Assembly: GCA_036381515.1 (NCBI GenBank)
Contig: DASVCR010000054.1
Coordinates: forward strand, 6,811 to 70,810
Source: Gammaproteobacteria bacterium
GTDB taxonomy: Bacteria > Pseudomonadota > Gammaproteobacteria > Steroidobacterales > Rariloculaceae
DNA length: 64,000 nt
Direction: 5' to 3'
Shown here: positions 1 through 59,265 of the stretch, piece by piece
How positions within the stretch are numbered: position 1 is the first letter of the stretch
Layout: each line of letters starts with the position of its first letter
Program-made: the position numbers and the translations under genes
The notes under the pieces: model-generated
Seen by the model: the letters and a program-made list of their open reading frames with translations, nothing else
Database searches by the model: none
Told to the model about the DNA's origin: nothing

Positions 1-283
1 GCAGCTCGGTGCCGTCGCTCGGCAACCCCGGCGCCGCCGCTCGACCGGCCTCGGGCGGCCGATCGGAGGCCTCGATCGCCGTCGCTCGGCGGTTTCGGCC
101 GCGAGGGGGAGTCGTCCGCAGCGCGTCTCGTGCACGTGGCTGGCGGGCTTTCCAGCCCGCCGGCGTCCCACGCTGGCCGTTCGCTGCGGGAGCGCGTATC
201 CTCCCGAATTGCGGGAACTTTCACGCAGCCGGGGTGGCCGATCCTAGCTGCTCCGAGTCACGTGACCCGCGTCGGACCCGACG

Positions 284-289
284 TATAAT
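284..289 (+). promoter_or_regulatory. Putative sigma70 -10 element for the cyclase gene
   Basis: Perfect TATAAT 40 bp upstream of ATG 329 in a GC-rich context; -35 weak. Confidence 0.45.
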
Positions 290-328
290 CCCGCTGACCT
301 CGCCCCCGCTTGGGCGCAGAAGGAAGCC

Positions 329-1231
329 ATGGGTAGGGAAGTCGAAGTTGCGATCCTGTTCGCCGACGTGGTGGGCAGCACGCAGCTTTACGAACAACTC
401 GGCGACGACAAGGCCCGCGAGATGGTGGGCCGGTGCCTCGCGATCATGCGCGAGGCGACCGAGACCTCGAACGGTACCGTCATCAAGACGATGGGCGACG
501 AGGTCATGTCGACCTTCCCGACGGCCGACGACGCGATGACCGCCGCGCGGCGCATGCAGGAGCGGATCTCGGCCGCGTCGGAGCTCGTCCACGAGAACGG
601 CCGCGTCGCGATCCGCATCGGTTGCCATTTCGGCCCGGTCGTGCAGGAGCAGCGCGACATCTTCGGCTCGGCCGTGCACATCGCGAATCGGATGACGAGC
701 CAGGCGAAGGCGAAGCAGATCGTCACGACGCTGTCGACGGTCGAGCGGCTGTCGCCCGAATGGCGCTCGATCGCGCGCCAGATCGACGTCGCGACCGTGC
801 GCGGCAAAGCCGACGAGGTGATCCTGTTCGAGGTGCTGTGGCAGCCGGAAGAGGCGACGAGCATGCTGCCGACGGTGCCGTGGAGCAAGAAGGCGAACTC
901 GCGTCCGAAGCGGTTGAGCCTGCGCTACCAGGGCAAGGAGATCCTGGTCGGCGAGGGGCGCAAGAGCGTGACGCTCGGCCGCGCCGAGGACAACGACCTC
1001 GTCGTGAAGGGAAATCTGATCTCGCGGCTGCACGCCCGCGTCGAGGCGAGCCGCGACAAGTTCACGTTATTCGACGAGAGCACGAACGGCACGTTCGTGC
1101 GCACCGACTCCGGCGAGGAGATCTTCGTTCGCCGCGACAGCACGCAGCTCACGGGCGAGGGCGTGATCGGCCTCGGCCGCGCCGCGCAGCCCGGCACCGC
1201 GCTTGCGGTGCACTACGTCGTCGAAGACTGA
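329..1231 (+). CDS. Class III adenylate/guanylate cyclase domain protein with C-terminal FHA domain
   Basis: FADVVGST and KTMGDEVM metal-binding Asp motifs, IRIGCHFGPV, DIFGSAVHIANR; FHA motifs LGR, ISRLHA, STNGTFV. Confidence 0.9.
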   Translation: MGREVEVAILFADVVGSTQLYEQLGDDKAREMVGRCLAIMREATETSNGTVIKTMGDEVMSTFPTADDAMTAARRMQERISAASELVHENGRVAIRIGCHFGPVVQEQRDIFGSAVHIANRMTSQAKAKQIVTTLSTVERLSPEWRSIARQIDVATVRGKADEVILFEVLWQPEEATSMLPTVPWSKKANSRPKRLSLRYQGKEILVGEGRKSVTLGRAEDNDLVVKGNLISRLHARVEASRDKFTLFDESTNGTFVRTDSGEEIFVRRDSTQLTGEGVIGLGRAAQPGTALAVHYVVED

Positions 1232-1328
1232 ACGCTGACCGCTGCGTCGTCTGCTGAAGAGTGCGCGCCGTCGGTAGACGGCGGCGGCTGCGTGCTCGTG
1301 TGCGCCGGGCCTGGCGCCGGTCGATCGC

Positions 1329-1439
1329 GCGTGTCGTCGGCATGCGCTTTCCGCGGCACGCGGGAAGAACGTCCTGCCGCTCGGCGGCGGCCATCCATGG
1401 CCGCCGAACGGCCGCCGAAAGCGCATGCCGACGACACGC
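1329..1439. repeat. Perfect 23-bp inverted repeat with 65-nt spacer containing an inner 10-bp hairpin
   Basis: GCGTGTCGTCGGCATGCGCTTTC (1329-1351) / GAAAGCGCATGCCGACGACACGC (1417-1439); inner CGGCGGCCAT-CC-ATGGCCGCCG (1385-1406). Confidence 0.9.
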
Positions 1440-1476
1440 CGGCGCTGCCGGCGCGGTGGGTTCGATGTCGCGAGTA

Positions 1477-1518
1477 GTGTCAGACACCTTTTTCGCTTGC
1501 GAAAAAGGTGTCTGACAC
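1477..1518. repeat. REP-like palindromic doublet (type A, copy 1)
   Basis: GTGTCAGACACCTTTTTCGC-TT-GCGAAAAAGGTGTCTGACAC, perfect 20-bp stem. Confidence 0.95.
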
Positions 1519-1527
1519 AATTTTCGG

Positions 1528-3270
1528 TCAGCCGAGCGCGTCGATGACCCGCCGGTGCTCTTCCCGCAGGCGCTTCGGCAGGCGGTCGCCGAACGTGTCG
1601 AGATACGCGCCGAGATCCTTCATCTCGTCGCGCCACTGCGCCGGATCGACGGCGAGGAGCTGCGCGAGCGTCTCCGGAGAGACGTCGAGCCCGGAGACGT
1701 CGAGATCCTCCGGCCGCGGCAGATAGCCGATCGGCGTCTCGACCGCGCCGGCGCGGCCTTCGCAGCGGTCGATGATCCAGCGCAGCACGCGCAGGTTCTC
1801 GCCGTAGCCGGGCCACAGGAACCGGCCGTCCGCGTCCCGGCGGAACCAGTTCACGTGGAAGATCTTCGGCAGCGCGCGCGTGCGCTCGGCGAAGCTCAGC
1901 CAGTGCGCCCAGTAGTCGCCGTAGTTGTAGCCGCAGAACGGCTTCATCGCCATCGGATCGCGCCGCACGACGCCGACCTTGCCGGTCGCGGCCGCCGTCG
2001 TCTCGGACGCGACGCTCGCGCCGACGAGCACGCCGTGCGCCCAGTCCTTCGCCTCGTAGACGAGCGGCGCGAGCTCGCGTCGGCGGCCGCCGAACACGAG
2101 CGCGGAGATCGGCACGCCTTCGGGCGCCTCGGCGAGGCTCGAGTAGCTCGGGTTCTGCTTCGCCGAGACCGTGAACCGGGAATTCGGATGCGCGGCGGGA
2201 CCGTTCCCGGGCTTATAGGCGTTGCCGAGCCAGTCGATGACCGGCTCGCCCTCGTTCTTCTCCTCCCACCACGGCTCCATGTCCGCCGTCAACGCGACGT
2301 TCGTGAAGATCGTGTCGTGCGTGATCATGTCGAACGCGTTGCGGTTCGTCTTCCGGTTCGTACCGGGCACGACGCCGAAGTAGCCCGCCTCGGGATTGAT
2401 CGCGCGGAGCCGCCCGTCGTTACCGACATGCATCCACGCGATGTCGTCGCCGAGCGTCCACACCTTCCATCCCGCATGGCTCGCGGGCGGGATCAGCATC
2501 GCGAGGTTCGTCTTGCCGCACGCCGACGGGAACGCGCAGGCGAGGTAGTGCGTCTCGCCCTTCGGATTCTCGATGCCGACGATCAGCATGTGCTCGGCGA
2601 GCCAGCCCTCGTCGCGCGCCTGCCAGCTCGCGATGCGCAGCGCGTGGCATTTCTTGCCGAGCAGCGCGTTGCCGCCGTACCCCGAGCCGTAGCTCATGAT
2701 CGTGAGCTCCTCGGGGAAATGCATGATGTAGCGCCGCTCCGGATCGAGCTCGCCGGTGCAGTGCCAGCCCTTCACGAACGTGCCGTCCCGCTCGATGCGC
2801 TCGAGCGCGGGCTTGCCCATCCGCGTCATCAGATACATGTTCGCGACGACGTACGGGCTGTCCGTGATCTCGACGCCGCAACGCGCGTACGGCGAGTCGA
2901 TCGGGCCCATGCAGTACGGGATGACATAAAGCGTCCTTCCGCGCATCGAGCCGCGGAAGCACTCGATCATCAGCTGCTTCGCCTCGTCGGGCGGCATCCA
3001 GTTGTTGTTGGGCCCGGCATCCTCCTGGTTGCGCGTGCAGACGTAGGTCAGATGCTCGACGCGGGCGACGTCCTGCGGGTCGGAGCGGTGCAGATAGCAG
3101 CGGGGATAGGTCTTCTGGTTCAGCTCGATCAAGGTGCCGTCCGCGAGCATCTTCTTGATCAGCGAGCGATATTCCTCGTCGGAGCCATCGCACCAGTGGA
3201 TTTTGTCGGGTTGGGTAAGCTCCGCCACCTCGGCGACCCAGTCGCCGAGCGATTTGAGTCTTGTCGTCAT
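1528..3270 (-). CDS. pckG: Phosphoenolpyruvate carboxykinase (GTP)
   Basis: AFPSACGKTNLAM kinase motif, GSGYGGNALLGKKC, GDDIAW, AHPNSRF, VNWFR, WPGYGEN. Confidence 0.97.
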   Translation of the reverse strand: MTTRLKSLGDWVAEVAELTQPDKIHWCDGSDEEYRSLIKKMLADGTLIELNQKTYPRCYLHRSDPQDVARVEHLTYVCTRNQEDAGPNNNWMPPDEAKQLMIECFRGSMRGRTLYVIPYCMGPIDSPYARCGVEITDSPYVVANMYLMTRMGKPALERIERDGTFVKGWHCTGELDPERRYIMHFPEELTIMSYGSGYGGNALLGKKCHALRIASWQARDEGWLAEHMLIVGIENPKGETHYLACAFPSACGKTNLAMLIPPASHAGWKVWTLGDDIAWMHVGNDGRLRAINPEAGYFGVVPGTNRKTNRNAFDMITHDTIFTNVALTADMEPWWEEKNEGEPVIDWLGNAYKPGNGPAAHPNSRFTVSAKQNPSYSSLAEAPEGVPISALVFGGRRRELAPLVYEAKDWAHGVLVGASVASETTAAATGKVGVVRRDPMAMKPFCGYNYGDYWAHWLSFAERTRALPKIFHVNWFRRDADGRFLWPGYGENLRVLRWIIDRCEGRAGAVETPIGYLPRPEDLDVSGLDVSPETLAQLLAVDPAQWRDEMKDLGAYLDTFGDRLPKRLREEHRRVIDALG

Positions 3271-3539
3271 TGGGTATTTTCGTGGCTGAAGTGGGAGGAT
3301 GCGTGCCGGAAGTATAACGCGACGCTCGCGGAAATTGCGGTCGAGGGTTCTACGGACTCGACGGTTCGGTCCGTCCGCTGCCGCGGCGATCGGGCGTTTC
3401 GCGCGGCGGCGCGCTTCGGTTCTCTACGGTTCTTTCCGGTATCGGTACCGTCGCGGCGCCGCGCCGACGGCCGATTCCCGCGGGCGCAGGCCGGATTCGA
3501 CGCTGCGGCGGGGGCCGGCATTCGCGTTATAGTCCGCCG

Positions 3540-5459
3540 ATGCAAGCGCTCGCGGATCTGTTCGGCCCCGAAGGCGTCCTCGCGAGCCGTCTGCCCGGGT
3601 TCTCGTATCGCGAGGCCCAGGCCCGCATGGCGGACATCGTCGCGAACGCGCTCGCCGAGCGTTCGCACGTCGTGATCGAGGCCGGCACCGGCATCGGCAA
3701 GACCTTCGCGTATCTCGTGCCGGTCCTCCACTCGGGGCTCCGCGCGGTCGTCTCGACGGGCACCCGCACGCTGCAGGACCAGCTCTTCGCGCGGGACCTG
3801 CCCCGCCTCGGCCGCGTGCTCGGCCGGCCGGTGGACGTCGCGTTGCTGAAGGGACGCAACAACTATCTGTGCTGGCATCGCCTCGAGCTGATGCGCTCGA
3901 GCGGCGAAGCGGACGCCGCGACGCTCGAGACGCTCGAGGCCGTCCGGGCGTGGGCCGCCGCGGGCGGCAGCGGCGACCTGACCGAGCTCGACGATCTTCC
4001 GGAGCAGCATCCGGCCCGCGCCTGGATCACGTCGACGGTCGACAACTGCCTCGGCGGCCGCTGCGAGCACTTCGATCGATGCTTCGTCGTCGAAGCGCGC
4101 CGGCGCGCGCTCGCCGCGCAGGTCGTCATCGTGAACCACCACCTGCTGCTCGCCGACCTCGCGCTCAAGGAGTCGGGCTTCGGCGAGCTGCTGCCCGAGG
4201 CGGATGCCGTGATCGTCGACGAAGCGCACCTGCTGCCGGACGTCGCACAGCAGTTCTTCGGCGTCAGCGCATCGACCCGGGAGCTCGAGCTGATCGCGCG
4301 CGACGCGGTCGTCGAGGCGCGCGCGGCGTCCCGCTCGCGCGACGTCGAGGCGGCGGCGGACGCGTTGACGAAGGCCGCCGCCGACGCACGCATCGCGCTT
4401 TACAACGCGCCGCTCGGCCGCCTGCCGTGGGCGGCCGCCGCCGGGCTCGCCCCGCACGTCGCCGCTTGGCGTGCGCGGCTCGATGCGCTCGATGCGGCGC
4501 TCGCGCACGCCGAGCCGCCGAGCGCAGGGTTCGCGAGGCTGCGGGAGCGCTGCGAGGACGCGGCACTCCGCCTCGCGCGGATCGCAGACACCGACGACGA
4601 CGCGGGCCTTCGCTGGGTCGAGCGCACGCAGCGCACGGTGAGCGTTCACTCGACGCCGCTCGACGTCGGCGACGCGTTGTCGTCCGCGATCGACGCGCAG
4701 GGTGGAGCGTGGGTGTTCGCATCGGCGACGCTCGCGGTCGGCGACGACTTCTCGCATTTCCTGAAGCGCATCGGTCTGCCGCGCGCGGCCGGGCACGTGC
4801 TGCCGAGCCCGTTCGACTACCGCCGCAACGCGAGGCTCTACCTGCCGCAGGGCCTGCCGCCGCCCGCGCGAGGCGACTTCGTCGAGGCGCTGATGCGGAT
4901 CGTCTGGCCGCTCGTCGCGGCCGCGGGTGGCGGTGCGTTCCTGCTGTTCACGAGCTATCGCGCGCTCCATCTCGCGAGCGAGTGGATCGCGCGCCGCGAC
5001 ACGCCGGGACCGGTCCTCGTGCAGGGCAGCGGCCCGCGTCATCAGCTCCTCGAGCGGTTCCGGGAAGCGGGCGACGCGGTGCTGCTCGGCACCGGCAGCT
5101 TCTGGCAAGGGGTCGACGTGCCGGGGCCGGCGCTCAGGCTCGTCGCGATCGACAAGCTGCCGTTCGCGGTGCCGGGCGACCCGCTCGTGCAGGCGCGCCT
5201 CGACGCGATCCGGCGCGCCGGAGGCGATCCCTTCGTCGAATCGCAGCTGCCCGAGGCCGTGCTCGCGCTGAAGCAGGGCGTCGGGCGGCTGATCCGCGAT
5301 TTCGGCGATCGCGGCATCGTCGTCATCGGCGATCCGCGGCTTCGAACGCGTCCGTACGGCCGGATCTTCCTGAAGAGCCTGCCCGACATGCCGATCATCG
5401 ACGAGCTCGACGACGCGCTCGAGTTCGCGGCGTCGCTGCGAGCCGCGGCGGCGGCGTAA
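3540..5459 (+). CDS. yoaA: ATP-dependent DNA helicase, DinG/YoaA family (Fe-S)
   Basis: EAGTGIGKT Walker A, LKGRNNYLC and clustered Cys, VDEAH, FWQGVDVPG, KQGVGRLIR; adjacent to tsaB. Confidence 0.92.
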   Translation: MQALADLFGPEGVLASRLPGFSYREAQARMADIVANALAERSHVVIEAGTGIGKTFAYLVPVLHSGLRAVVSTGTRTLQDQLFARDLPRLGRVLGRPVDVALLKGRNNYLCWHRLELMRSSGEADAATLETLEAVRAWAAAGGSGDLTELDDLPEQHPARAWITSTVDNCLGGRCEHFDRCFVVEARRRALAAQVVIVNHHLLLADLALKESGFGELLPEADAVIVDEAHLLPDVAQQFFGVSASTRELELIARDAVVEARAASRSRDVEAAADALTKAAADARIALYNAPLGRLPWAAAAGLAPHVAAWRARLDALDAALAHAEPPSAGFARLRERCEDAALRLARIADTDDDAGLRWVERTQRTVSVHSTPLDVGDALSSAIDAQGGAWVFASATLAVGDDFSHFLKRIGLPRAAGHVLPSPFDYRRNARLYLPQGLPPPARGDFVEALMRIVWPLVAAAGGGAFLLFTSYRALHLASEWIARRDTPGPVLVQGSGPRHQLLERFREAGDAVLLGTGSFWQGVDVPGPALRLVAIDKLPFAVPGDPLVQARLDAIRRAGGDPFVESQLPEAVLALKQGVGRLIRDFGDRGIVVIGDPRLRTRPYGRIFLKSLPDMPIIDELDDALEFAASLRAAAAA

Positions 5460-5501
5460 ACGTTCATCGACGACGCGCCGCGTGCCAGAATCTCCGCCGC
5501 A

Positions 5502-6182
5502 ATGAATCTGCTCGCGCTCGAAACCTCGAGTCCCGTCGGCTCGATCGCGCTGCTCTGCGGCGACGACGTGCTCGAGCGCTTCATCGAGACGCCGCGCGAG
5601 CAGACCGACCTCGTGCTGCCGTTCGTCGACGACGTGCTCGACGCGGCGGGACTCGCGCTGCGCGACCTCGACGCGGTCGCGTTCGGTCGCGGTCCCGGCT
5701 CGTTCACGGGCCTGCGGATTGCCGCGGCCGTCACGCAGGGCCTCGCGTTCGCGTCGGGCGTGCCGGTCGTCGCGGTTTCGAGCCTGGAGGCGCTCGCGCA
5801 GCGCGCGTGGCGCGAGCTCGGCGTCGACGACGCGCTCGTCTGCGTCGATGCGCGGATGCGGGAAGTCTATGCCGCGCGCTACGTCGTCCGGCGGGGCCGC
5901 GCGGCGCTCCGCGGCGAGGAGCGGCTGTGTCCGCCCGAGGCGCTGGTCGCGCCGGGCGGCGTCGACGGCGACGGCTGGACGGCCGTCGGCAGCGGCTTTG
6001 CGGCGTACGCGGATGTGCTCGCGCCGCTCGCCGGCCGTGCGGCGCGCGTCGTGCCGGACCTCGTGCCGGCCGCTCGTGACCTCCTCGTCGCCGCGGCGGA
6101 CGACGTCGCGGCCGGGCGGTTCCTCGCGCCCGAGGCGGCGTTGCCGGTGTATCTGCGCGACGAGAACGCCTGGCGCCGCTAG
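5502..6182 (+). CDS. tsaB: tRNA threonylcarbamoyladenosine biosynthesis protein TsaB
   Basis: LALETSS, GRGPGSFTGLRI, DARMREVY, PVYLR. Confidence 0.96.
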   Translation: MNLLALETSSPVGSIALLCGDDVLERFIETPREQTDLVLPFVDDVLDAAGLALRDLDAVAFGRGPGSFTGLRIAAAVTQGLAFASGVPVVAVSSLEALAQRAWRELGVDDALVCVDARMREVYAARYVVRRGRAALRGEERLCPPEALVAPGGVDGDGWTAVGSGFAAYADVLAPLAGRAARVVPDLVPAARDLLVAAADDVAAGRFLAPEAALPVYLRDENAWRR

Positions 6183-6187
6183 CCCGG

Positions 6188-6237
6188 AAAATGTGTCAGA
6201 CACCTTTTTCGGCCGAAAAAGGTGTCTGACACATTTT
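6188..6237. repeat. REP-like palindromic doublet (type A, copy 2), perfect 50-bp palindrome
   Basis: AAAATGTGTCAGACACCTTTTTCGG|CCGAAAAAGGTGTCTGACACATTTT. Confidence 0.95.
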
Positions 6238-6340
6238 TCCGGCGGAATTGGGGTCAGAGCCCATTTCTCTGCGAAATCGGGGTCAGAGCCCATTTCCTGA
6301 CCGGGAAGAGGCTCGGAGGACGAGCGGCCCCTGACCCAAC

Positions 6341-6422
6341 TTGGCTAACCCCCAGCTTCAGGACGCCTTGGCTAACCCCCAACTTTAGGAAGCCTTCAGT
6401 AACCCCCAACTTCAGGAAGGCC
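6341..6422. repeat. 27-bp tandem repeat x3
   Basis: TTGGCTAACCCCCAGCTTCAGGACGCC / TTGGCTAACCCCCAACTTTAGGAAGCC / TTCAGTAACCCCCAACTTCAGGAAGGCC. Confidence 0.9.
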
Positions 6423-6712
6423 TTTTCTCGGAGATTCCGTCAGCGGAAATGGGCGCAGAGGAATCTGGGGTCAGAGCTTTCGTTCGTGCGGAAAGTGGGA
6501 AACTGAGGGCAGAGCCCGCTCTCGGAAGTTGGGGCAGAGATGGGTCAGCGCCCCTTTTCCACGGACGGAGTCTCTCGACGCAGTTTCAAGTTTTCTCTGA
6601 GCTAATTCCCAAAGGGCTCTGCCCCGATTTCCGCATGCTGGCCCTAATTGCCATGCGGCAACCGGCTCTGGCCGGATTCTCCCGGGAAAGAGCCGCCCCC
6701 AATGTCTCCGCC

Positions 6713-6818
6713 TGGCTCTGACCCGAGTTTCGTCTGGAAAAGGGCTCTGACCCGAGTTTCGTCTGGAAATGGGCTCTGACCCGAGTTTCGTCTGGAAAAG
6801 GGCTCTGACCCCAATTTC
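6713..6818. repeat. 29-bp tandem repeat, about 3.6 copies
   Basis: GGGCTCTGACCCGAGTTTCGTCTGGAAAW units starting 6713, 6742, 6771, 6800. Confidence 0.95.
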
Positions 6819-6820
6819 GG

Positions 6821-6854
6821 CGTTCACCCCTCTGTAACATTGTGAAGCTGTAAT
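6821..6854 (+). promoter_or_regulatory. Putative Pho box plus -10 for phoBRU
   Basis: CGTTCAC-CCCT-CTGTAAC (7-4-7, cf. CTGTCAT consensus) followed exactly 10 bp later by TGTAAT. Confidence 0.55.
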
Positions 6855-6886
6855 GACCGGCGCCGGTTGAGCCGAGCGATCCCGCC

Positions 6887-7579
6887 ATGACGGAAAAGAA
6901 GGTTTTGGTCGTCGAGGACGAAGAGCCGATCCGCGATCTGCTGCGTTTCAGGCTTGCGCGCGCCGGCTACGCCGTCGTGCCGGCGGCGACGGGTGCCGAG
7001 GCGCGGGCCGCGATCGCCGACACGCGTCCCGACGTCATCCTGATGGACTGGATGTTGCCGGACGTCAGCGGCCTCGAGCTCACGAGAGAGCTGAAGCGTG
7101 ACCCCGCGACGCGCGAGATTCCCGTGATCATGCTGACCGCCCGCGCGCAGGAGGACGACCGCGTCGCGGGGCTCGAGGGCGGCGCGGACGACTACGTCGT
7201 GAAGCCGTTCTCGCCGCGCGAGCTCCTCGCGCGGATCAAGGCGGTGATGCGGCGCGGCACGGTCGAGGACGACGAGCTGCTGACCGCGGGCCGCCTCGTG
7301 CTCGACCCGGCGAGTCACCGCGTGATGGTCGACGGGGAGGAGGTCGCGCTCGCGCCGACCGAGTTCAGGCTGCTCAAGTTCTTCATGGAGCATCCCGACC
7401 GCGTCTACAGCCGCGCGCAGGTCCTCGATCGCGTGTGGGGCGGCAACGTCTATGTCGAGGAGCGCACGGTCGACGTGCACATTCGGCGACTGCGTCAAGC
7501 CTTGACCCCTTTCGGATACGATAGACTCATTCGCACCGTCCGAGGGGCCGGCTACGGGTTTTCGCCGGATCGAGCGTGA
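6887..7579 (+). CDS. phoB: Phosphate regulon response regulator PhoB
   Basis: VVEDE, LMDWMLP, GADDYVVKPFSPREL, VWGGNVYVEERTVDVHIRRLR. Confidence 0.97.
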   Translation: MTEKKVLVVEDEEPIRDLLRFRLARAGYAVVPAATGAEARAAIADTRPDVILMDWMLPDVSGLELTRELKRDPATREIPVIMLTARAQEDDRVAGLEGGADDYVVKPFSPRELLARIKAVMRRGTVEDDELLTAGRLVLDPASHRVMVDGEEVALAPTEFRLLKFFMEHPDRVYSRAQVLDRVWGGNVYVEERTVDVHIRRLRQALTPFGYDRLIRTVRGAGYGFSPDRA

Positions 7580-8904
7580 GACTGCCGAACCGCTGGGTAT
7601 CGCAACTCGGGATCCTGACCGCGTGGCTCGGCGCAGCGCTGCTGCTCGGCCTGTGGTTCGGCGGCGTGAGCTGGTGGCTCGCCGGCGCGCTCGCGCTCTA
7701 CCTCGGCCACGTGCTGCGGCAGGTGTATCTGCTCGACCGCGTGCTCGAGGGCGAGAAGCGTCTGCCGAGCTTCGAGACGCGCGGCCTCTGGGCCGAAATG
7801 TTCGCCCGCGTCGACAAGATCCGTGCGAAGGCGCGCAGCCGGAAGAAGAAGTATCACCGGCTGCTGCGCGAGGTCTGGGAGAGCACGGGTGCGCTGCGCG
7901 ATGCGGGCATCATCCTGAACGCGGCGCACGAGATCCTGTGGTTCAATCCCGCGGCGACGCGCCTGCTCGGCCTCGATCCGTCGCGGGACATCGGCAACCG
8001 GATCGACAACCTCGTCCGCCACCCGGCCTTCGTCCGGCACCTGTCGAACCCGCAGGGCGAGGACGTGACGATTCCGTCGCCGCATCGGCCCGACTGCTGG
8101 CTGTCGATCACGTTGATTCCGTACGGACAGAACCAGCGGCTCGCGATCGTTCGCGACGTTACGCGGCAAATGAAGCTCGAGACGATGCGGCGCGATTTCG
8201 TCGCGAACGCGTCGCACGAGCTCAGGTCGCCGCTGACGGTGATCAGCGGCTACCTCGACGCGCTCGCGGACGACGACGAGCTGCCAAAGAGCTGGCGGCA
8301 GCCGGTCGCGGAGATGCAGCGCCAGGCGGACCGGATGACTCGAATCCTCAAGGATCTGATCGAGCTGACTCGCCTCGAGTCCGCGGAGCCGAGCGCGCGG
8401 CAGGACTTCGTCGACGTGGCCGCGCTGCTCGAGCAGATCGTCGGCGAGTTCCGCAGGCGGTCGGAAGGCAGGACGATCGAGCTCCACGTCGAGACCGACG
8501 CCGCGCTGCTCGGCAAGGAGGTCGAGATCCACTCGATCGCGTACAACCTCGTGCACAACGCCGTGCGGTTCACGCCGCCGTCCGGCCGCATCGACGTGAC
8601 GTGGCGCGCGGACGGCGACGGTGCCGCGCTCGTCGTCGCGGACACCGGCATCGGCATCCCGCAGGATCAGATTTCGCGCGTGACCGAGCGCTTCTACCGC
8701 GTCGATCCGGGCCGCTCGCGCGCGACCGGCGGCACCGGGCTCGGGCTCGCGATCGTGAAGCACGCGCTGCAGCGCCACGGCGGCACGCTCGAGATCGAGA
8801 GCCGCGTAGGCGAGGGCAGCACGTTCACGTGTCGCTTTCCGGCGGCGCGGATCGCGCATCGGGACGAGGCCGCGCGCAAGGCGTCCGCGCGGGCCGTCGT
8901 ATAG
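7576..8904 (+). CDS. phoR: Phosphate regulon sensor kinase PhoR
   Basis: N-terminal TM, PAS, DFVANASHELRSPLTVISGY H-box, ERFYRVD, GGTGLGLAIVKH. Confidence 0.96.
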   Translation: MRLPNRWVSQLGILTAWLGAALLLGLWFGGVSWWLAGALALYLGHVLRQVYLLDRVLEGEKRLPSFETRGLWAEMFARVDKIRAKARSRKKKYHRLLREVWESTGALRDAGIILNAAHEILWFNPAATRLLGLDPSRDIGNRIDNLVRHPAFVRHLSNPQGEDVTIPSPHRPDCWLSITLIPYGQNQRLAIVRDVTRQMKLETMRRDFVANASHELRSPLTVISGYLDALADDDELPKSWRQPVAEMQRQADRMTRILKDLIELTRLESAEPSARQDFVDVAALLEQIVGEFRRRSEGRTIELHVETDAALLGKEVEIHSIAYNLVHNAVRFTPPSGRIDVTWRADGDGAALVVADTGIGIPQDQISRVTERFYRVDPGRSRATGGTGLGLAIVKHALQRHGGTLEIESRVGEGSTFTCRFPAARIAHRDEAARKASARAVV

Positions 8905-8943
8905 AATTCGCCTGAGCCGCGCGAGCGCGGCGGGAGTCGGCCG

Positions 8944-9684
8944 ATGGAAGTCGAAGACCTGGGTCACCACATCTCGAGACGGTTCAACGAGGACCTCGAG
9001 CGCGTCCGCAACTCGGTGCTGACGATGGGGGGGCTCGTCGAGGACCAGCTCGATCGCGCGATGCGCGCGCTCGCGGAGGCCGACAGCGAGCTGGGGCTGC
9101 AGGTCGCCGAGAACGACGCGAAGGTCAACAAGATGGAGGTCGCGATCGACGAGGAGTGCAGCCGCATCCTCGCGACCCGCGCGCCGACCGCCGGGGACCT
9201 GCGCCTGATCATCGCCGTCATCAAGACGATCACCGATCTCGAGCGGGTCGGCGACGAGGCCGAGAAGATCGGCGTGCTGGCCGCGCGGCTCGCGGGCCAG
9301 GAGCGCCCGTCGACGAACTACCGGGAGCTGCGCAACCTCGCGCAGCACGTGAAGGAGATGCTGCGCGGCGCGCTCGACGCGTTCGCGCGCCTCGATGCGA
9401 AGGCGGCGCTCGCGGTCGTGAAGGCGGATGACGTCGTCGACGAGGAGTACGAGTCGATCTATCGTCAGGGGCTGACGTTCATGATCGAGGATCCGCGGAC
9501 GATCTCGCGCGTCATGGACACGATGTGGGTCGCCCGGGCGCTCGAACGGATCGGCGATCATGCGAAGAACATCTGCGAGTACGTGATATTCATGGTGCAC
9601 GGCAAGGATCTGAGGTATACGGGGCTCGAGCACATCGAGGCGGAGGTGCAGGAGGCGGTGCGCCGTCGGGAGAGCCGCTCGTGA
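8944..9684 (+). CDS. phoU: Phosphate signalling complex protein PhoU
   Basis: HHISRRFNEDLE, PTAGDLR, TDLERVGDEA, LERIGDHAKNICE. Confidence 0.97.
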   Translation: MEVEDLGHHISRRFNEDLERVRNSVLTMGGLVEDQLDRAMRALAEADSELGLQVAENDAKVNKMEVAIDEECSRILATRAPTAGDLRLIIAVIKTITDLERVGDEAEKIGVLAARLAGQERPSTNYRELRNLAQHVKEMLRGALDAFARLDAKAALAVVKADDVVDEEYESIYRQGLTFMIEDPRTISRVMDTMWVARALERIGDHAKNICEYVIFMVHGKDLRYTGLEHIEAEVQEAVRRRESRS

Positions 9685-10217
9685 TCGCCGTGGCCGGCGC
9701 GGCGCCGCGGCAGTGGTTCGGGACGCGCGGCGGGCGGCGGCTCCTGAACGGCATCGGCTTCCTGATCGTCGCCGCGCTGATGGGGTATGCGCTCTATGCG
9801 GAGCACGTCCTCGGGCTCGCGCCGTGTCCGCTCTGCATCTTCCAGCGGGTCGCGATGATCGCGCTCGGCTTCATGTTCCTTGCCGCGGCGCTGCATGCGC
9901 CGACCGGGTGGGGCGCGCGCGTGTACGCGGGCCTCGGCGCGATCGTCGCGCTGACCGGTGTCGGCATCGCGGGGTGGCACGTGCGGATGCAGAACCTGCC
10001 GCCGGACGCGATCCCGAGCTGCGGTCCCGGCCTCAACGTCTACTTCGAGACGCTCCCGGTGCTCGAAGCGCTGCGCGCGGTCTTCACGGCGTCCGGCGAG
10101 TGCTCGGAGGTCAACTGGACCTTCCTCGGCCTCAGCATGCCGGCGTGGGTGCTGATCTGGTTCGTGCTGCTCGGCGCGCTCGCCGTCGCCGCGAACTGGG
10201 CGCGCGTCTCCCGCTGA
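9681..10217 (+). CDS. dsbB: Disulfide bond formation protein B
   Basis: PCPLCIFQR, second Cys pair (SCGPG...GECSEV), FLGLSMPAW; GTG start overlaps the phoU stop (GTGA). Confidence 0.93.
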   Translation: MIAVAGAAPRQWFGTRGGRRLLNGIGFLIVAALMGYALYAEHVLGLAPCPLCIFQRVAMIALGFMFLAAALHAPTGWGARVYAGLGAIVALTGVGIAGWHVRMQNLPPDAIPSCGPGLNVYFETLPVLEALRAVFTASGECSEVNWTFLGLSMPAWVLIWFVLLGALAVAANWARVSR

Positions 10218-10225
10218 AATCGCGC

Positions 10226-10279
10226 GAAAATTGTGTCAGACACATTTTTCCCCGGAAAAATGTGTCTGACACAATTTTC
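10226..10279. repeat. REP-like palindromic doublet (type A, copy 3), downstream flank of the Y1 transposase
   Basis: GAAAATTGTGTCAGACACATTTTTCC-CC-GGAAAAATGTGTCTGACACAATTTTC, perfect 26-bp stem. Confidence 0.95.
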
Positions 10280-10291
10280 CGTGTTTCGCCG

Positions 10292-10984
10292 TCAGCTCGT
10301 CCGCCGCGGCGGCCGCCCCCTTTTCCTCTTCACGAGCGGCCGCTGCACGGCGGTTTCCAGGCTCTGCCTGAACGCGTCATCGCCAGTCGGTACGCTATCG
10401 TTCAGGCCTTCCCGGATCCTCTGCACCGTTTCCTCCGGCAGCCTTTCGCAAATCAGCTCGCGATACCGGGCGGCCCTTTCGAACGGTGTCGGCCCGAGTA
10501 ACAGAAAGGTCGGGTGCGGAGCGATCAGGGAGGACGGGGCGCCCGTGGAGTTGACGCGGCAGCTGCTCCACGGATACGCATCTGGGCGCCGGACGATCCC
10601 GGCCCGGACCGGGTTCAGCTCGATATAGCGATAGCACGCGAGACAGTAATAGTCGGCATCGATGGGTGAGGCATGGAAACGGCTCTCCCACAACGATCCG
10701 GTACGCGCGTAGCGCGCGTTGAAGTGGGCGGAATAGCGGCCGGAGACGTACTGCAGGAGGCGCGAGACGCCGTCGGGAAGCCGCGACGTCAGAAGCAGGT
10801 GCACGTGATTCGTCATCAAGACGTAGGCATGGACGCTGGTCTCAAAACGACGTGCGCCTGTGCGAAGGAGGGACAGATAGTCCACGAAGTCGCGCCGGTC
10901 CAGAAACGTCGCATCCCGGTTGTGCCCGCGTTGGACGACGTGGAACGTCAAGCCTGACAGACGAATCCGGTGTGCTCGGCCCAT
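10292..10984 (-). CDS. HUH Y1 transposase (REP-associated tyrosine transposase-like)
   Basis: FHVVQRGHNR, HAYVLMTNHVHLL (HUH), LWESRF, RYIELNPVRAG (catalytic Tyr), YPWSS, C-terminal KRGRP; start taken at MGRAHR. Confidence 0.92.
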   Translation of the reverse strand: MGRAHRIRLSGLTFHVVQRGHNRDATFLDRRDFVDYLSLLRTGARRFETSVHAYVLMTNHVHLLLTSRLPDGVSRLLQYVSGRYSAHFNARYARTGSLWESRFHASPIDADYYCLACYRYIELNPVRAGIVRRPDAYPWSSCRVNSTGAPSSLIAPHPTFLLLGPTPFERAARYRELICERLPEETVQRIREGLNDSVPTGDDAFRQSLETAVQRPLVKRKRGRPPRRTS

Positions 10985-11068
10985 GACGGAGGGTGCAGGA
11001 ACCAGACCCGACGAGCGTAGTACGCCCGGGAGCTCGCCTGCAGCCGTCAATCCCGCCGCGACATCGAG

Positions 11069-11120
11069 AAAAATGTGTCAGACACGATTTTCCGTGGAAA
11101 ATCGTGTCTGACACATTTTT
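11069..11120. repeat. REP-like palindromic doublet (type A, copy 4), upstream flank of the Y1 transposase
   Basis: AAAAATGTGTCAGACACGATTTTCC-GT-GGAAAATCGTGTCTGACACATTTTT, perfect 25-bp stem. Confidence 0.95.
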
Positions 11121-12250
11121 TAGAGGAGCAGGCGCTCGGCGATCCGGAAGTAGATCCGCTCGAGGCGCTCGAGGTCCTCGATCGCGACGCACTCGTCGAC
11201 CTTGTGGATCGTCGCGTTCAACGGGCCGAGCTCGACGACGTCGATGCCGTAGGGCGCGATGAAGCGGCCGTCCGACGTGCCGCCGCTCGTCGAGAGCTCT
11301 GGTGTAAGGCCGGTCTCGTGCGCGACGGCTTCGTCGACCGTCTCGGTCAGCCTGCCGGGCGCCGTCAGGAACGGCTCGCCGGCGACGCGCCACCTGATCG
11401 TGTAGTCGATGCCGAGCCGCTCGAGCTCGGCCTCGACGCGTGCGGCCAGCGACTGCGCCGTCCACTCGGTCGAGTAACGGAAGTTGAAGCGGCAGTTGAG
11501 CTCGCCCGGGACGACGTTCGGCGCGCCGGCGTCGGAATGCACGTTCACCATCTGAAACGTCGTCGGCGGGAAGTGCGCGTTGCCCGCGTCCATCGGCTCG
11601 CGCGTGATCGCCGCGACGAAGCGCGCGAACGCATGCATCGGGTTCTCGGACGCGAGCGGATACGCGACATGACCCTGGACGCCGCGCACCGTCAGGAACC
11701 CGGTCAGCGAGCCCCGGCGCCCGATCCGGACCGTGTCGCCGAGACGCTCGCTGCTCGACGGCTCGCCGACGATGCAGTAGTCGAACAGCTCGCCGCGCGC
11801 CGCGAGGCGCTCCATGACCTTGAGCGTCCCGTCGTCGGCCGCGCCTTCCTCGTCGCTCGTGATCAGGAGCGCGATCGACCCGGGCGCGTCCGGATACGCA
11901 GCCGCGAACCGCTCGGCGGCCTTGATCATCGCCGCGAGGCTGCCCTTCATGTCCGCCGCGCCGCGGCCGATCAGCATCCCATCGCGCACCGTCGCCGCGA
12001 ACGGCGGCGCGCACCACTGGTCCTCGGGACCGGGCGGCACGACGTCGGTGTGGCCGGCGAAGACGAGGACCGGGCGCCCGGTGCCGCGCCGCAGCCACAG
12101 GTTGTCGACCGGACCGAAGCGCATCGGCTCGGCCGTGAACCCGGAGGCCGAGAGCTCTTCGGCGATCAGCGCCTGACAGCCGGCATCGTCGGGCGTCACG
12201 GACGGACGCTGGATCAGTGCGCGCGCGAGCGCGACGAGGTCGAGGCTCAC
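11120..12250 (-). CDS. dapE: Succinyl-diaminopimelate desuccinylase
   Basis: SVTPDDAGCQ, FAGHTDVVP, GRGAADMKGSLAAM, TSDEE, GRRGSL, QGHVAYP, GGTSDGRF; GTG start after GGAGG. Confidence 0.96.
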   Translation of the reverse strand: MSLDLVALARALIQRPSVTPDDAGCQALIAEELSASGFTAEPMRFGPVDNLWLRRGTGRPVLVFAGHTDVVPPGPEDQWCAPPFAATVRDGMLIGRGAADMKGSLAAMIKAAERFAAAYPDAPGSIALLITSDEEGAADDGTLKVMERLAARGELFDYCIVGEPSSSERLGDTVRIGRRGSLTGFLTVRGVQGHVAYPLASENPMHAFARFVAAITREPMDAGNAHFPPTTFQMVNVHSDAGAPNVVPGELNCRFNFRYSTEWTAQSLAARVEAELERLGIDYTIRWRVAGEPFLTAPGRLTETVDEAVAHETGLTPELSTSGGTSDGRFIAPYGIDVVELGPLNATIHKVDECVAIEDLERLERIYFRIAERLLL

Positions 12251-12355
12251 GCCGGCCCCTCCATGATTTTCCGCGCGAAGGATCGAGCACAACCCATTGA
12301 TCTTACGAGGCCCTCATGCCGTCCGCCCGCGTCGACCGGCGGCCACGGCGCCGGC

Positions 12356-12389
12356 CTGCAACAATTCCGTAACATTCGTCGACTACCTT
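12356..12389 (+). promoter_or_regulatory. Putative Pho box plus -10 for pstSCAB
   Basis: CTGCAAC-AATT-CCGTAAC (7-4-7) followed exactly 10 bp later by TACCTT. Confidence 0.65.
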
Positions 12390-12399
12390 TCGGCCCGTC

Positions 12400-13476
12400 A
12401 TGCGAGCCGACGACTTCCCGTCAGCGCCCGTCGTCCGTGCCGTCGCGGCGCTCCTGCTCGCGCTCGCGACCGCCTCGCCGGCGGCGGCGCAAATCGCCCG
12501 CGACTATATCAACATCGTCGGCTCGTCGACGGTTTATCCCTTCGCGACCGTCGTCGCCGAGCGCTTCGGGCGCGCGACCCGCTTCAAGACGCCGAAGGTC
12601 GAGGCGACCGGCAGCGGCGGCGGCATCAAGCTGTTCTGCAACGGCCTCGGCGTGCGCCACCCGGACATCGTGAACTCCTCGCGGCGCATCAAGCGGAGCG
12701 AGATCGAGAGCTGCGCCCGGAACGGCGTCCGCGAGGTCGTCGAGTTCGTCGTCGGCTACGACGGCATCGTCCTCGCGTCGTCTCGAGATGCGAACCCTAT
12801 CTCTCTGACGCTGCAGCAAGTCTACCTCGCCCTCGCGAAGCACGTCCCGGATCCGTCGGGCGCCCCGCGGCTCGTCCCGAATCCGTATCGCCGGTGGTCC
12901 GACCTCGATCCGAAGCTTCCGGGCGCCGAGATCGAGGTGCTCGGGCCCCCGCCGACCTCCGGCACGCGCGACGCGTTCCTCGAGCTCGCGATGGAAGGCG
13001 GGTGCGGCACGTTCGAGCTGATCCGGTCGCTCGGCGACGACGAGCGCCTCGTCGCGTGCCACACGCTCCGCGAGGACGGCGCGTATGTCGAGGCCGGCGA
13101 GAACGACAACCTGATCGTGCAGAAGCTGAACGCGAACCCGAACGCGCTCGGCATCTTCGGCTACAGCTTCCTCGATCAGAACGGCGACCGTGTCCGCGCC
13201 GTCGCGATCGACGGCGTCGAGCCGACCTTCGAGACGATCGCCGATTCCAGGTATCCGATCTCGCGGCCGCTGTACTTCTACGTGAAGAAGGCGCACGTCG
13301 GCGTGATCCCGGGCATCGAGGGGTACCTCCGCGAGTTCATGAGCGAGGCCGCGGCGGGCGACTACGGTTATCTCTCCGATCTCGGGCTCGTGCCGCTTCG
13401 CGAGAACGAGCGCCGGGAGATGGTCGAGCGGATCGAATCGCTCGAGTCCCTGCAGCTCGCGAACGTCACACGATGA
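12400..13476 (+). CDS. pstS: Phosphate ABC transporter substrate-binding protein
   Basis: Signal peptide, VGSSTVYPF, TGSGGG, GPPPTSGTRDAF, YPISRPLYFY. Confidence 0.95.
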   Translation: MRADDFPSAPVVRAVAALLLALATASPAAAQIARDYINIVGSSTVYPFATVVAERFGRATRFKTPKVEATGSGGGIKLFCNGLGVRHPDIVNSSRRIKRSEIESCARNGVREVVEFVVGYDGIVLASSRDANPISLTLQQVYLALAKHVPDPSGAPRLVPNPYRRWSDLDPKLPGAEIEVLGPPPTSGTRDAFLELAMEGGCGTFELIRSLGDDERLVACHTLREDGAYVEAGENDNLIVQKLNANPNALGIFGYSFLDQNGDRVRAVAIDGVEPTFETIADSRYPISRPLYFYVKKAHVGVIPGIEGYLREFMSEAAAGDYGYLSDLGLVPLRENERREMVERIESLESLQLANVTR

Positions 13477-33000: not shown

Positions 33001-34465
<1,465 letters not shown>

Positions 34466-48940: not shown

Positions 48941-49100
48941 AAATCCCTCAGTTGCGACCGCAGGGGACTTGACCGGCATCGGCTCTCTGGGACGGTCCCC
49001 GGCGCCGCTGCTTCTCACCTCCACTGCCGCAGCTCGGCCGGATAGAACTGCTCCCCCTGAAATTAGTTTCGATGTCCTTGCCGGACATCTGATCGGGAAC

Positions 49101-49125
49101 ATCGTGTCAGACGCCATTTTTTCCC
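49101..49125. repeat. Degenerate single type A unit
   Basis: ATCGTGTCAGACGCCATTTTTTCC; contains the stop codon of the upstream glycosyltransferase frame. Confidence 0.65.
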
Positions 49126-59146: not shown

Positions 59147-59164
59147 TGGTATAAAGCGCGCGCC
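59147..59164 (+). promoter_or_regulatory. rpsB promoter: extended -10 with GC-rich discriminator
   Basis: TG-G-TATAAA-GCGCGCGCC, resembling the gammaproteobacterial rpsB promoter. Confidence 0.75.
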
Positions 59165-59169
59165 TTTCA

Positions 59170-59265
59170 GGCAATCAACGACACACACGCGCCGCTCACC
59201 CGTCAGCCGGGTGCCTGGCCCGTAAGGGCACGAGGTCGCTGCGGGGGCACGTGGAGGATCAACCC
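59170..59265 (+). ncRNA. rpsB 5' leader (t44 RNA / S2 autoregulatory element)
   Basis: ACACACACG...CCGGGTGCC...GGTCG...GGG.CACGTGGAGG.TCAACCC matches the conserved blocks of the t44 leader; located between map and rpsB. Confidence 0.85.

Follow-up and report, generated by a model that had tools for sequence, protein, structure and literature searches.

Two genome-wide families of inverted repeats, each matching the flanks of its own Y1 HUH nuclease gene, in a gammaproteobacterium

The window, i.e., the whole 64,000-nt stretch of DNA analyzed, belongs to a 4.57-Mb gammaproteobacterial assembly (G000; 89.5% complete) and carries an array of palindromic repeats that starts three bases past the stop codon of a tsaB-like gene, upstream of a phoB-like gene (Table 1). 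As the preliminary description had it, a doublet of type A units (GTGTC-W-GACAC) is followed by two type B units (GGGGTC-A-GAGCCC), with palindrome centers at 6198, 6227, 6256 and 6285 and steps of 29/29/29; with unit direction set by the central base and flanks, the array (6184-6297) reads A+ A- B+ B+. Folded with DNA parameters, the type A doublet forms one long hairpin with a 4-nt loop (-27 kcal/mol). Further along lie a tandem repeat that, by eye, may be a decayed piece of a B unit, and a second B array, in which the centers 6748, 6777 and 6806 were confirmed but 6719 proved to be only a partial unit within the 29-bp tandem array. The tsaB-phoB gap is ~700 bp in the window and 87-178 bp in six relatives, so that the array at 6184-6297 is a lineage-specific pile-up. 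The other type A doublets also lie where they had been placed, with the spacings given in Table 1; the dapE stop codon (11120-11122) lies in, and comes from, the tract of one of them.

Table 1. Repeats, genes and other features of the window, and nested doublets in the same genome (window coordinates unless a contig is named)
Feature	Position	Strand	Remark
Adenylate/guanylate cyclase-FHA fusion	329..1231		next to pck throughout the genus (conserved)
Type A doublet, centers 1482/1513, step 31	1470..1525	.	at PEP carboxykinase stop
tsaB-like gene	5502..6182	+	left of array
Type A head-to-head doublet (A+ 6198, A- 6227), step 29	6186..6239	.	3 bases past tsaB stop
Two direct-orientation type B units, centers 6256, 6285	6244..6297	+	sequence
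27-bp tandem repeat, 3.1 copies	6340..6424	.	tandem-repeat search
Degenerate B units, centers 6473 +, 6547 +, 6620 -	6461..6632	.	unit search
Type B tandem array, period 29, 3.7 copies	6714..6819	-	faces B units at 6256/6285
phoB-like response regulator gene	6887..7579	+	right of array
Type A doublet, centers 10238/10267, step 29	10226..10279	.	downstream of Y1 gene, past dsbB stop
Y1 HUH nuclease gene, 230 aa, cognate of type A (by flanks)	10292..10984	-	PF01797
Type A doublet, centers 11080/11109, step 29	11068..11122	.	upstream of Y1 gene
Tandem repeat, 7-bp unit, 11.4 copies	34383..34462		
Single degenerate type A unit	49097..49121	+	
t44 RNA (RF00127)	59164..59263		score just above gathering; sole Rfam match in window
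Nested long B doublets inside A arms	G000 C81:43734, C81:59988, C34:155037, C106:29752		

A PF01797 search of G000 returned two genes, whose proteins are 58% identical. The one in the window is flanked by four A units and no B unit, and the other, on contig C17, by B only; the preliminary description was right in assigning the repeats to a Y1 HUH system, but wrong in proposing one enzyme for both types, since there are two genes and each is flanked by one type only. Both proteins (230 and 240 aa) have all of the motifs NHVH, W[EQ], YIELNP (YIEQNP in the paralogue) and SS. In the window protein the HUH motif is H60-V61-H62, the tyrosine of YIELNP is Tyr120, and the C terminus bears a GRP tail, which we take to resemble an AT-hook; no Pfam HTH or AT-hook profile matched any of 52 family members. 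The profile NF047646 scored 72.3 and 72.1 bits, below its cut-off of 80, and NF033573 (IS200/IS605 TnpA, NCBIfam) scored 21 and 17 bits against a cut-off of 55. A model of the window protein (pLDDT 92.7) is closest in fold to PDB 4ER8 (Z 16.7, rmsd 2.4, 159 residues aligned), with three extra helices predicted at the C terminus. The dN/dS ratio is ~0.17-0.19 in three orthologous pairs, showing that the Y1 gene is under purifying selection.

Both repeats are abundant genome-wide. G000 has 292 exact type A cores and 420 type B cores, where an order-4 Markov model predicts 0.12 and 0.45, and 918 units when up to two mismatches are allowed. The doublets are strongly polar (118 A+A- vs 2 A-A+, and 78 B+B- vs 8 B-B+) and are inverted, not direct, repeats; no Rfam CRISPR family reached threshold within the window. 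The shared core and the A- and T-rich flanks were borne out, as was the lack of a GTAG tag: position frequencies make the foot of the unit an A-tract, and the GT[AG]G tetranucleotide is absent. Mixed A/B loci likewise recur, making up 41 of 288 exact-core loci vs 12-15 expected. Among the matches listed, no relevant paper of the literature searched has the motif strings, and the text of Nunvar 2010 has no such repeat.

Relatives of G000 tie repeat to gene more closely. Six of nine congeners have a homologue, and five of the six are dominated by just the repeat type that flanks the gene. Thus, the A/B/C core counts are 213/9/0 in G008, whose gene is flanked by A; 0/229/0, 1/307/2 and 0/156/3 in G003, G009 and G007, whose genes are flanked by B; and 1/9/316 in G002, whose gene is flanked by type C, a perfect palindrome one base from B. 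The sixth, G005, also has a C-flanked gene and counts of 129/114/190. The three congeners without a match have at most six copies of any type (0/6/0 in G001, 2/5/3 in G004 and 3/2/6 in G006). The abundant repeat type is thereby shown to follow the resident gene across the genus. At the dsbB-dapE site, where the window carries its Y1 gene, a 72-bp scar containing one A doublet is all that G005 has. The one Y1 gene of G005 is flanked by C and is orthologous and syntenic to the B gene (84% identity); G005 is a sister species that has lost the A gene and kept a one-doublet scar.

The predicted co-occurrence of repeats and Y1 genes held in the congeners but not in two other genomes, G024 (125 B cores; 77% complete) and G011 (20 B cores; 98% complete), neither of which has a PF01797 match. 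Conversely, six genomes outside the genus with a B-flanked gene have only 3-9 B cores, so the gene alone is insufficient for amplification. In a class-wide sample, a close homologue is present in 107 of 400 genomes, and the top B count outside G000 is 29 among 399 genomes (one genome left out); given so low a ceiling despite so many homologues, amplification is a trait of this lineage. The reading that we favor, at a probability of roughly 75%, is that A and B are two genome-wide families, each matching the flanks of its own single-copy Y1 gene, and that each enzyme likely spreads and rewrites its own family.

The preliminary description had instead a single enzyme that places A and B units alike by a constant ruler of 29 bp. 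In G000, close neighbors (≤45 bp) are 29 bp apart in 43 of 355 cases and 28-30 bp apart in 118, and the sought genome-wide peak dissolves into a broad 27-31 mode of A head-to-head doublets (18/80 at 29, 19/80 at 28 and 15/80 at 30). B tandem steps spread over 9-45 (13/177 at 29), and B head-to-head doublets have their mode at 28 (1/18 at 29). The short-doublet mode shifts to 27 in G008 (24/37; pattern window 27-31) and to 24-25 in G024. Two points do favor the single ruler: 29 is the commonest tail-to-tail mixed step (5/19), close to the A doublet mode, and mixed loci number ~3 times expectation. Yet of 29 mixed-type triples, three have two equal steps in a row vs 1.8 expected (p 0.26), so that a register lock is absent; there are two genes with separate flanks; and B occurs without A in G003, G007 and G009, while in G008 A occurs with hardly any B. 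A single enzyme with a ruler is refuted in the form proposed, and we regard it as extremely improbable. In same-type triples, equal steps (19/96 vs 5.4 expected) reflect tandem duplication. In 52 of 78 short A doublets, pairing of the inner arms is perfect as far as position 12-14, and the loop is mostly 1-4 nt; a step of ~29 follows from two 13-base arms and a minimal loop. The array at 6198-6285 is the assembly's sole mixed four-unit run with equal steps. The 29-bp spacing is a local coincidence, and the register itself is unimportant; on the two-family reading, the 29 of the B array would be local tandem duplication and the mixed array two families at one spot.

Where the repeats lie raises the question of host selection for two-way terminators or mRNA stabilizers, which would account for location and persistence and leave the enzyme only to seed. 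By crude ORF calls, 71 of 92 A loci, 56 of 80 B loci and 34 of 36 mixed loci are within 30 nt of a stop codon, and 29 of 288 loci are inside ORFs. A loci are scarcer between divergent genes (9/101 vs 510/2317 gaps), and A doublets make up four of the eight terminator-like matches in positions 1-12500. Those eight matches, however, compare with 5.4 +/- 2.4 in shuffles, a unit on its own gives a weak fold (-3 to -6 kcal/mol), and selection on the host leaves unexplained why the repeat sequence tracks the resident gene. As the whole explanation it seems very unlikely; it is compatible with the two-family explanation as a second layer.

Repeat type has switched at fixed sites. The gene at the dsbB-dapE site is flanked by A in G000 and G008, by C in G002 and by B in G003 and G009; the gene at the second site is flanked by B in G000 and G007 and by C in G005. 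AU tests (LG+G4; groups defined from DNA after the tree had been seen) reject a single clade for C-flanked (p 0.0026) and for B-flanked genes (p 2.5e-5); the 97-protein tree is a quick tree. Six C-bearing G005 loci have an orthologous G000 site in the 1.16 Mb of G005 (a quarter of its genome) compared, and five of these sites hold B and one A; two long G005 doublets have one B arm and one C arm, and one G005 C doublet has its loop in common with a G000 B doublet. B sites are thus shown to have turned into C in place, some of them half converted. Separately, two G005 loci (L339 and L329) have hybrid A/C units that are symmetric across both doublet arms, suggesting that one arm may have been copied from the other.

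Head-to-head doublets form two size classes, of ~29 and ~60 bp. Steps among the exact A doublets of up to 130 bp (n = 110) are 24-36 in 71, 37-52 in one, 53-67 in 34 and longer in four; the corresponding numbers for exact B doublets (n = 40) are 10, 2, 18 and 10. The long class encloses a unique loop, mostly of 32-33 nt, in both A and B. Doublets share the polarity of the gene's own flanks, and 108 of 127 family loci have that polarity around the gene. The two arms of a copy are more alike than arms paired by shuffling, including at positions that the family does not conserve. For 14 of 22 long G005 doublets there is a doublet at the orthologous G000 site; four of these loops are kept, two are clearly inverted, one is doubtful and seven are unrecognizable at similar length (L321 was left out of the inversion count). 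Four B doublets (Table 1) are nested in A arms, 18-20 bp from the A centers and symmetric to the base, and one nested element is duplicated together with its loop, the 33-nt loops of the two agreeing at 32 of 33 positions. G000 has a single duplicated loop pair, so recent copying is rare.

Several origins for the long loops were considered and rejected. For copying from flanking DNA, the longest words common to loop and flanks were 4-11 nt (mostly 4-7); for copying from other genomic DNA, comparison gave one true pair and short matches at chance level; and for swapping between loci, none of the 22 G005 loops matched a non-orthologous G000 loop better than the shuffle null (best 7.5, null p95 7.5). 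Loop self-folding averaged z -0.3 in 54 loops, and mutual similarity was slightly above that of shuffles, with no consensus found. A further kind of doublet, the short B doublets of G000 with steps of 25-29 and a mode of 28 (for example, C42:37725 and C25:63215), has its own semi-conserved spacer and no T-tract/A-tract hairpin; at the metagenome locus L207 such a doublet flanks a Y1 gene, overlapping its 3' end, and the gene stops before the GRP tail.

These loops permit a reading of the element from the inside out, in which the arms are fixed docking sites and the enzyme cuts at their inner ends to measure, invert, delete or replace a cassette of ~33 nt (or the gene, or another doublet); site choice would be set by a few residues of one helix (78, 81 and 82) and by residue 103, a readable protein-DNA code through which specificity could flip and the repeats of the genome could be rewritten where they stand. 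The near-empty size gap, the loop size common to A, B and C, the inversions and same-size unrelated loops at orthologous doublets, the four B doublets nested where the A arms end on the inside, and the scar left by gene loss would all fit. On the other hand, no loop at a non-orthologous site rose above the null, and inverted arms are able to invert a loop without an enzyme. We consider this reading unlikely.

The protein family was built from 205 homologous loci, after two duplicate loci had been left out, along with any protein that had an internal stop or failed the length filter; a flank motif was called in 136 loci, or 133 after near-identical proteins were removed, and the caller made 6 calls on 615 shuffled flanks. 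The left half of the core is constant, partly by construction of the caller, and the right half varies; just 6 of 133 motifs are perfectly palindromic, so the single-unit hairpin is not a general substrate. Y1 positions 78, 81, 82, 85, 102 and 103 align with R78, K81, K82, T85, R97 and F98 of TnpA-REP, of which R78, K82 and R97 make base-specific hairpin contacts according to the available text of PMC3479197. Co-variation of residue and motif was detected in 44 loci and then checked on 79 new ones. In the new set Gln78 goes with T at -2 (47/48) and Lys78 with A (19/25), Gln82 goes with C at +3 (24/25), residue 81 is nearly invariant, and all six His103 go with a central G, but so do seven Phe. 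Gly82 is present in 5/5 listed A- or C-core enzymes vs 1/15 B-core enzymes. Ser82 was rejected as a type B rule; it occurs in four of five B-flanked relatives from the genus clade but in 4 of 15 B-core loci overall, the others including nine Arg, one Gln and one Gly (the last at L207). None of the kinship-corrected tests was significant; among the pairs listed there were at most four supported independent pairs, with 2.4-3.2 in the same direction, none opposite and a median p of 0.25-0.5, and residue 103 contributed one pair. A putative residue-motif code at the hairpin-reading helix is a lead, not a result.

Another possibility is that the C-terminal helices and the GRP tail read the units in double-stranded form, as terminal inverted repeats, which would make the doublets MITE-like miniatures and not REP-like hairpins. 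The inverted polarity round the gene, the mostly non-palindromic core and the three extra helices speak for it, as do the GRP motif, which 166 of 205 proteins have among their final 50 residues, and the one contrast in which a clade with another tail has another flank. The gene, however, has stayed at two fixed sites across species, characterized HUH enzymes cut single strands (PMC3479197, in the part available), and the motif co-variation falls on the hairpin-reading helix; we think it improbable. A GGDR-like tail replaces GRP in 25 of 205 proteins, and the 15 of these with called motifs have flanks unlike the A/T-tract type.

How two enzymes might each maintain a family can be sketched by analogy with E. 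coli TnpA-REP. On exposed single strands the enzyme would bind a site that has a direction, running from an A-tract through a conserved left half and a right half specific to the enzyme to a T-tract; it would nick the DNA by means of Tyr120, and strand transfer would put copies into or beside existing repeats. What replicates would likely be the head-to-head doublet, which resembles in miniature the gene with its inverted flanks. Assembled contigs of four public runs, covering a stretch other than the window (contig C65), gave no interpretable excision or joint at a repeat.

Judged by motifs and flanks, both genes are of the TIRYT type and not of the GTAG REP type. In the accessible parts of the sources, TIRYT or TIRtron (PMC3733652), TnpA-Y1 subclass 2.1 (PMC6006769) and Group 1 RAYT (PMC5581495) are one and the same, so that a system first taken to be under-described is of a kind already described. 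The likeness extends to length (~230-240 aa; reference near 238 aa), to the NHVH, WE, YIELNP and SS motifs, to inverted GGGGWSAS flanks (matched by types B and C; in A the third G is a T), to the absence of GTAG, to dimers and clusters, and to several genes per genome with their own repeats. What these texts report is moderate families, 12 occurrences on average (Group 1) or no REP-like sequences; this genus, in contrast, has 150-420 copies per type, and also differs in that Pfam finds no HTH, orthologues switch repeat type and doublets have two size classes. No class of RAYT-like enzymes is larger than subclass 2.1/Group 1; the literature searched yielded no biochemical work on it. The genus is a ready test set, with three repeat types one or two bases apart, differently flanked 84%-identical orthologues, half-converted doublets and a gene-loss scar, and a small recognition code would serve orthogonal HUH tags.

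Of the enzymes with solved structures, E. coli TnpA-REP bound to a REP hairpin (PDB 4ER8; PMC3479197, also PMC8266576, in the parts available) is closest in fold to the modeled protein, and the hairpin-reading positions align. Identity is only 18-21%, however, and the proteins here have a longer helical C terminus with a basic tail and other residues at the GTAG-binding region. IS200/IS605 TnpA shares the HUH/Y1 core fold but has YxxxQ in place of YxxxNP, whereas the Y1 genes here are single-copy and syntenic, with no tnpB adjoining the window gene.

A further comparison is with the REPIN-RAYT systems of Groups 2 and 3, as set out in the available text of PMC3116915 and bioRxiv 10.1101/2021.07.10.451892 and of the REPORTH paper (bioRxiv 10.1101/2024.10.14.618302). 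In those systems, as in the present one, each repeat group has its own enzyme, inverted doublets keep to certain distances around a spacer that varies, clusters may be mixed, repeats decay once the gene is lost, and the repeat type at orthologous sites tracks the resident enzyme; change of repeat type at a fixed site has already been reported for Group 3. Like REPINs, the repeats here form hundreds of extragenic copies and inverted doublets that favor particular distances, and their populations go with a cognate single-copy enzyme that is inherited vertically (G024 and G011 excepted). Unlike Groups 2 and 3, they lack the GTAG tag, and NF047646 stays below cut-off; each enzyme type of those groups is described as monophyletic and site-fixed, whereas here B-flanked and C-flanked genes are each rejected as one clade. 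How an enzyme's repeat switch affects the repeat population is called an open question in bioRxiv 10.1101/2021.07.10.451892, and the genus bears on it. Distinctive here are co-variation of helix and motif (not significant after kinship correction), two doublet size classes, switching among A, B and C by orthologues, conversion of B into C, and repeat populations of REPIN scale, which contradict the statement in the REPORTH text that only Groups 2 and 3 have REPINs.
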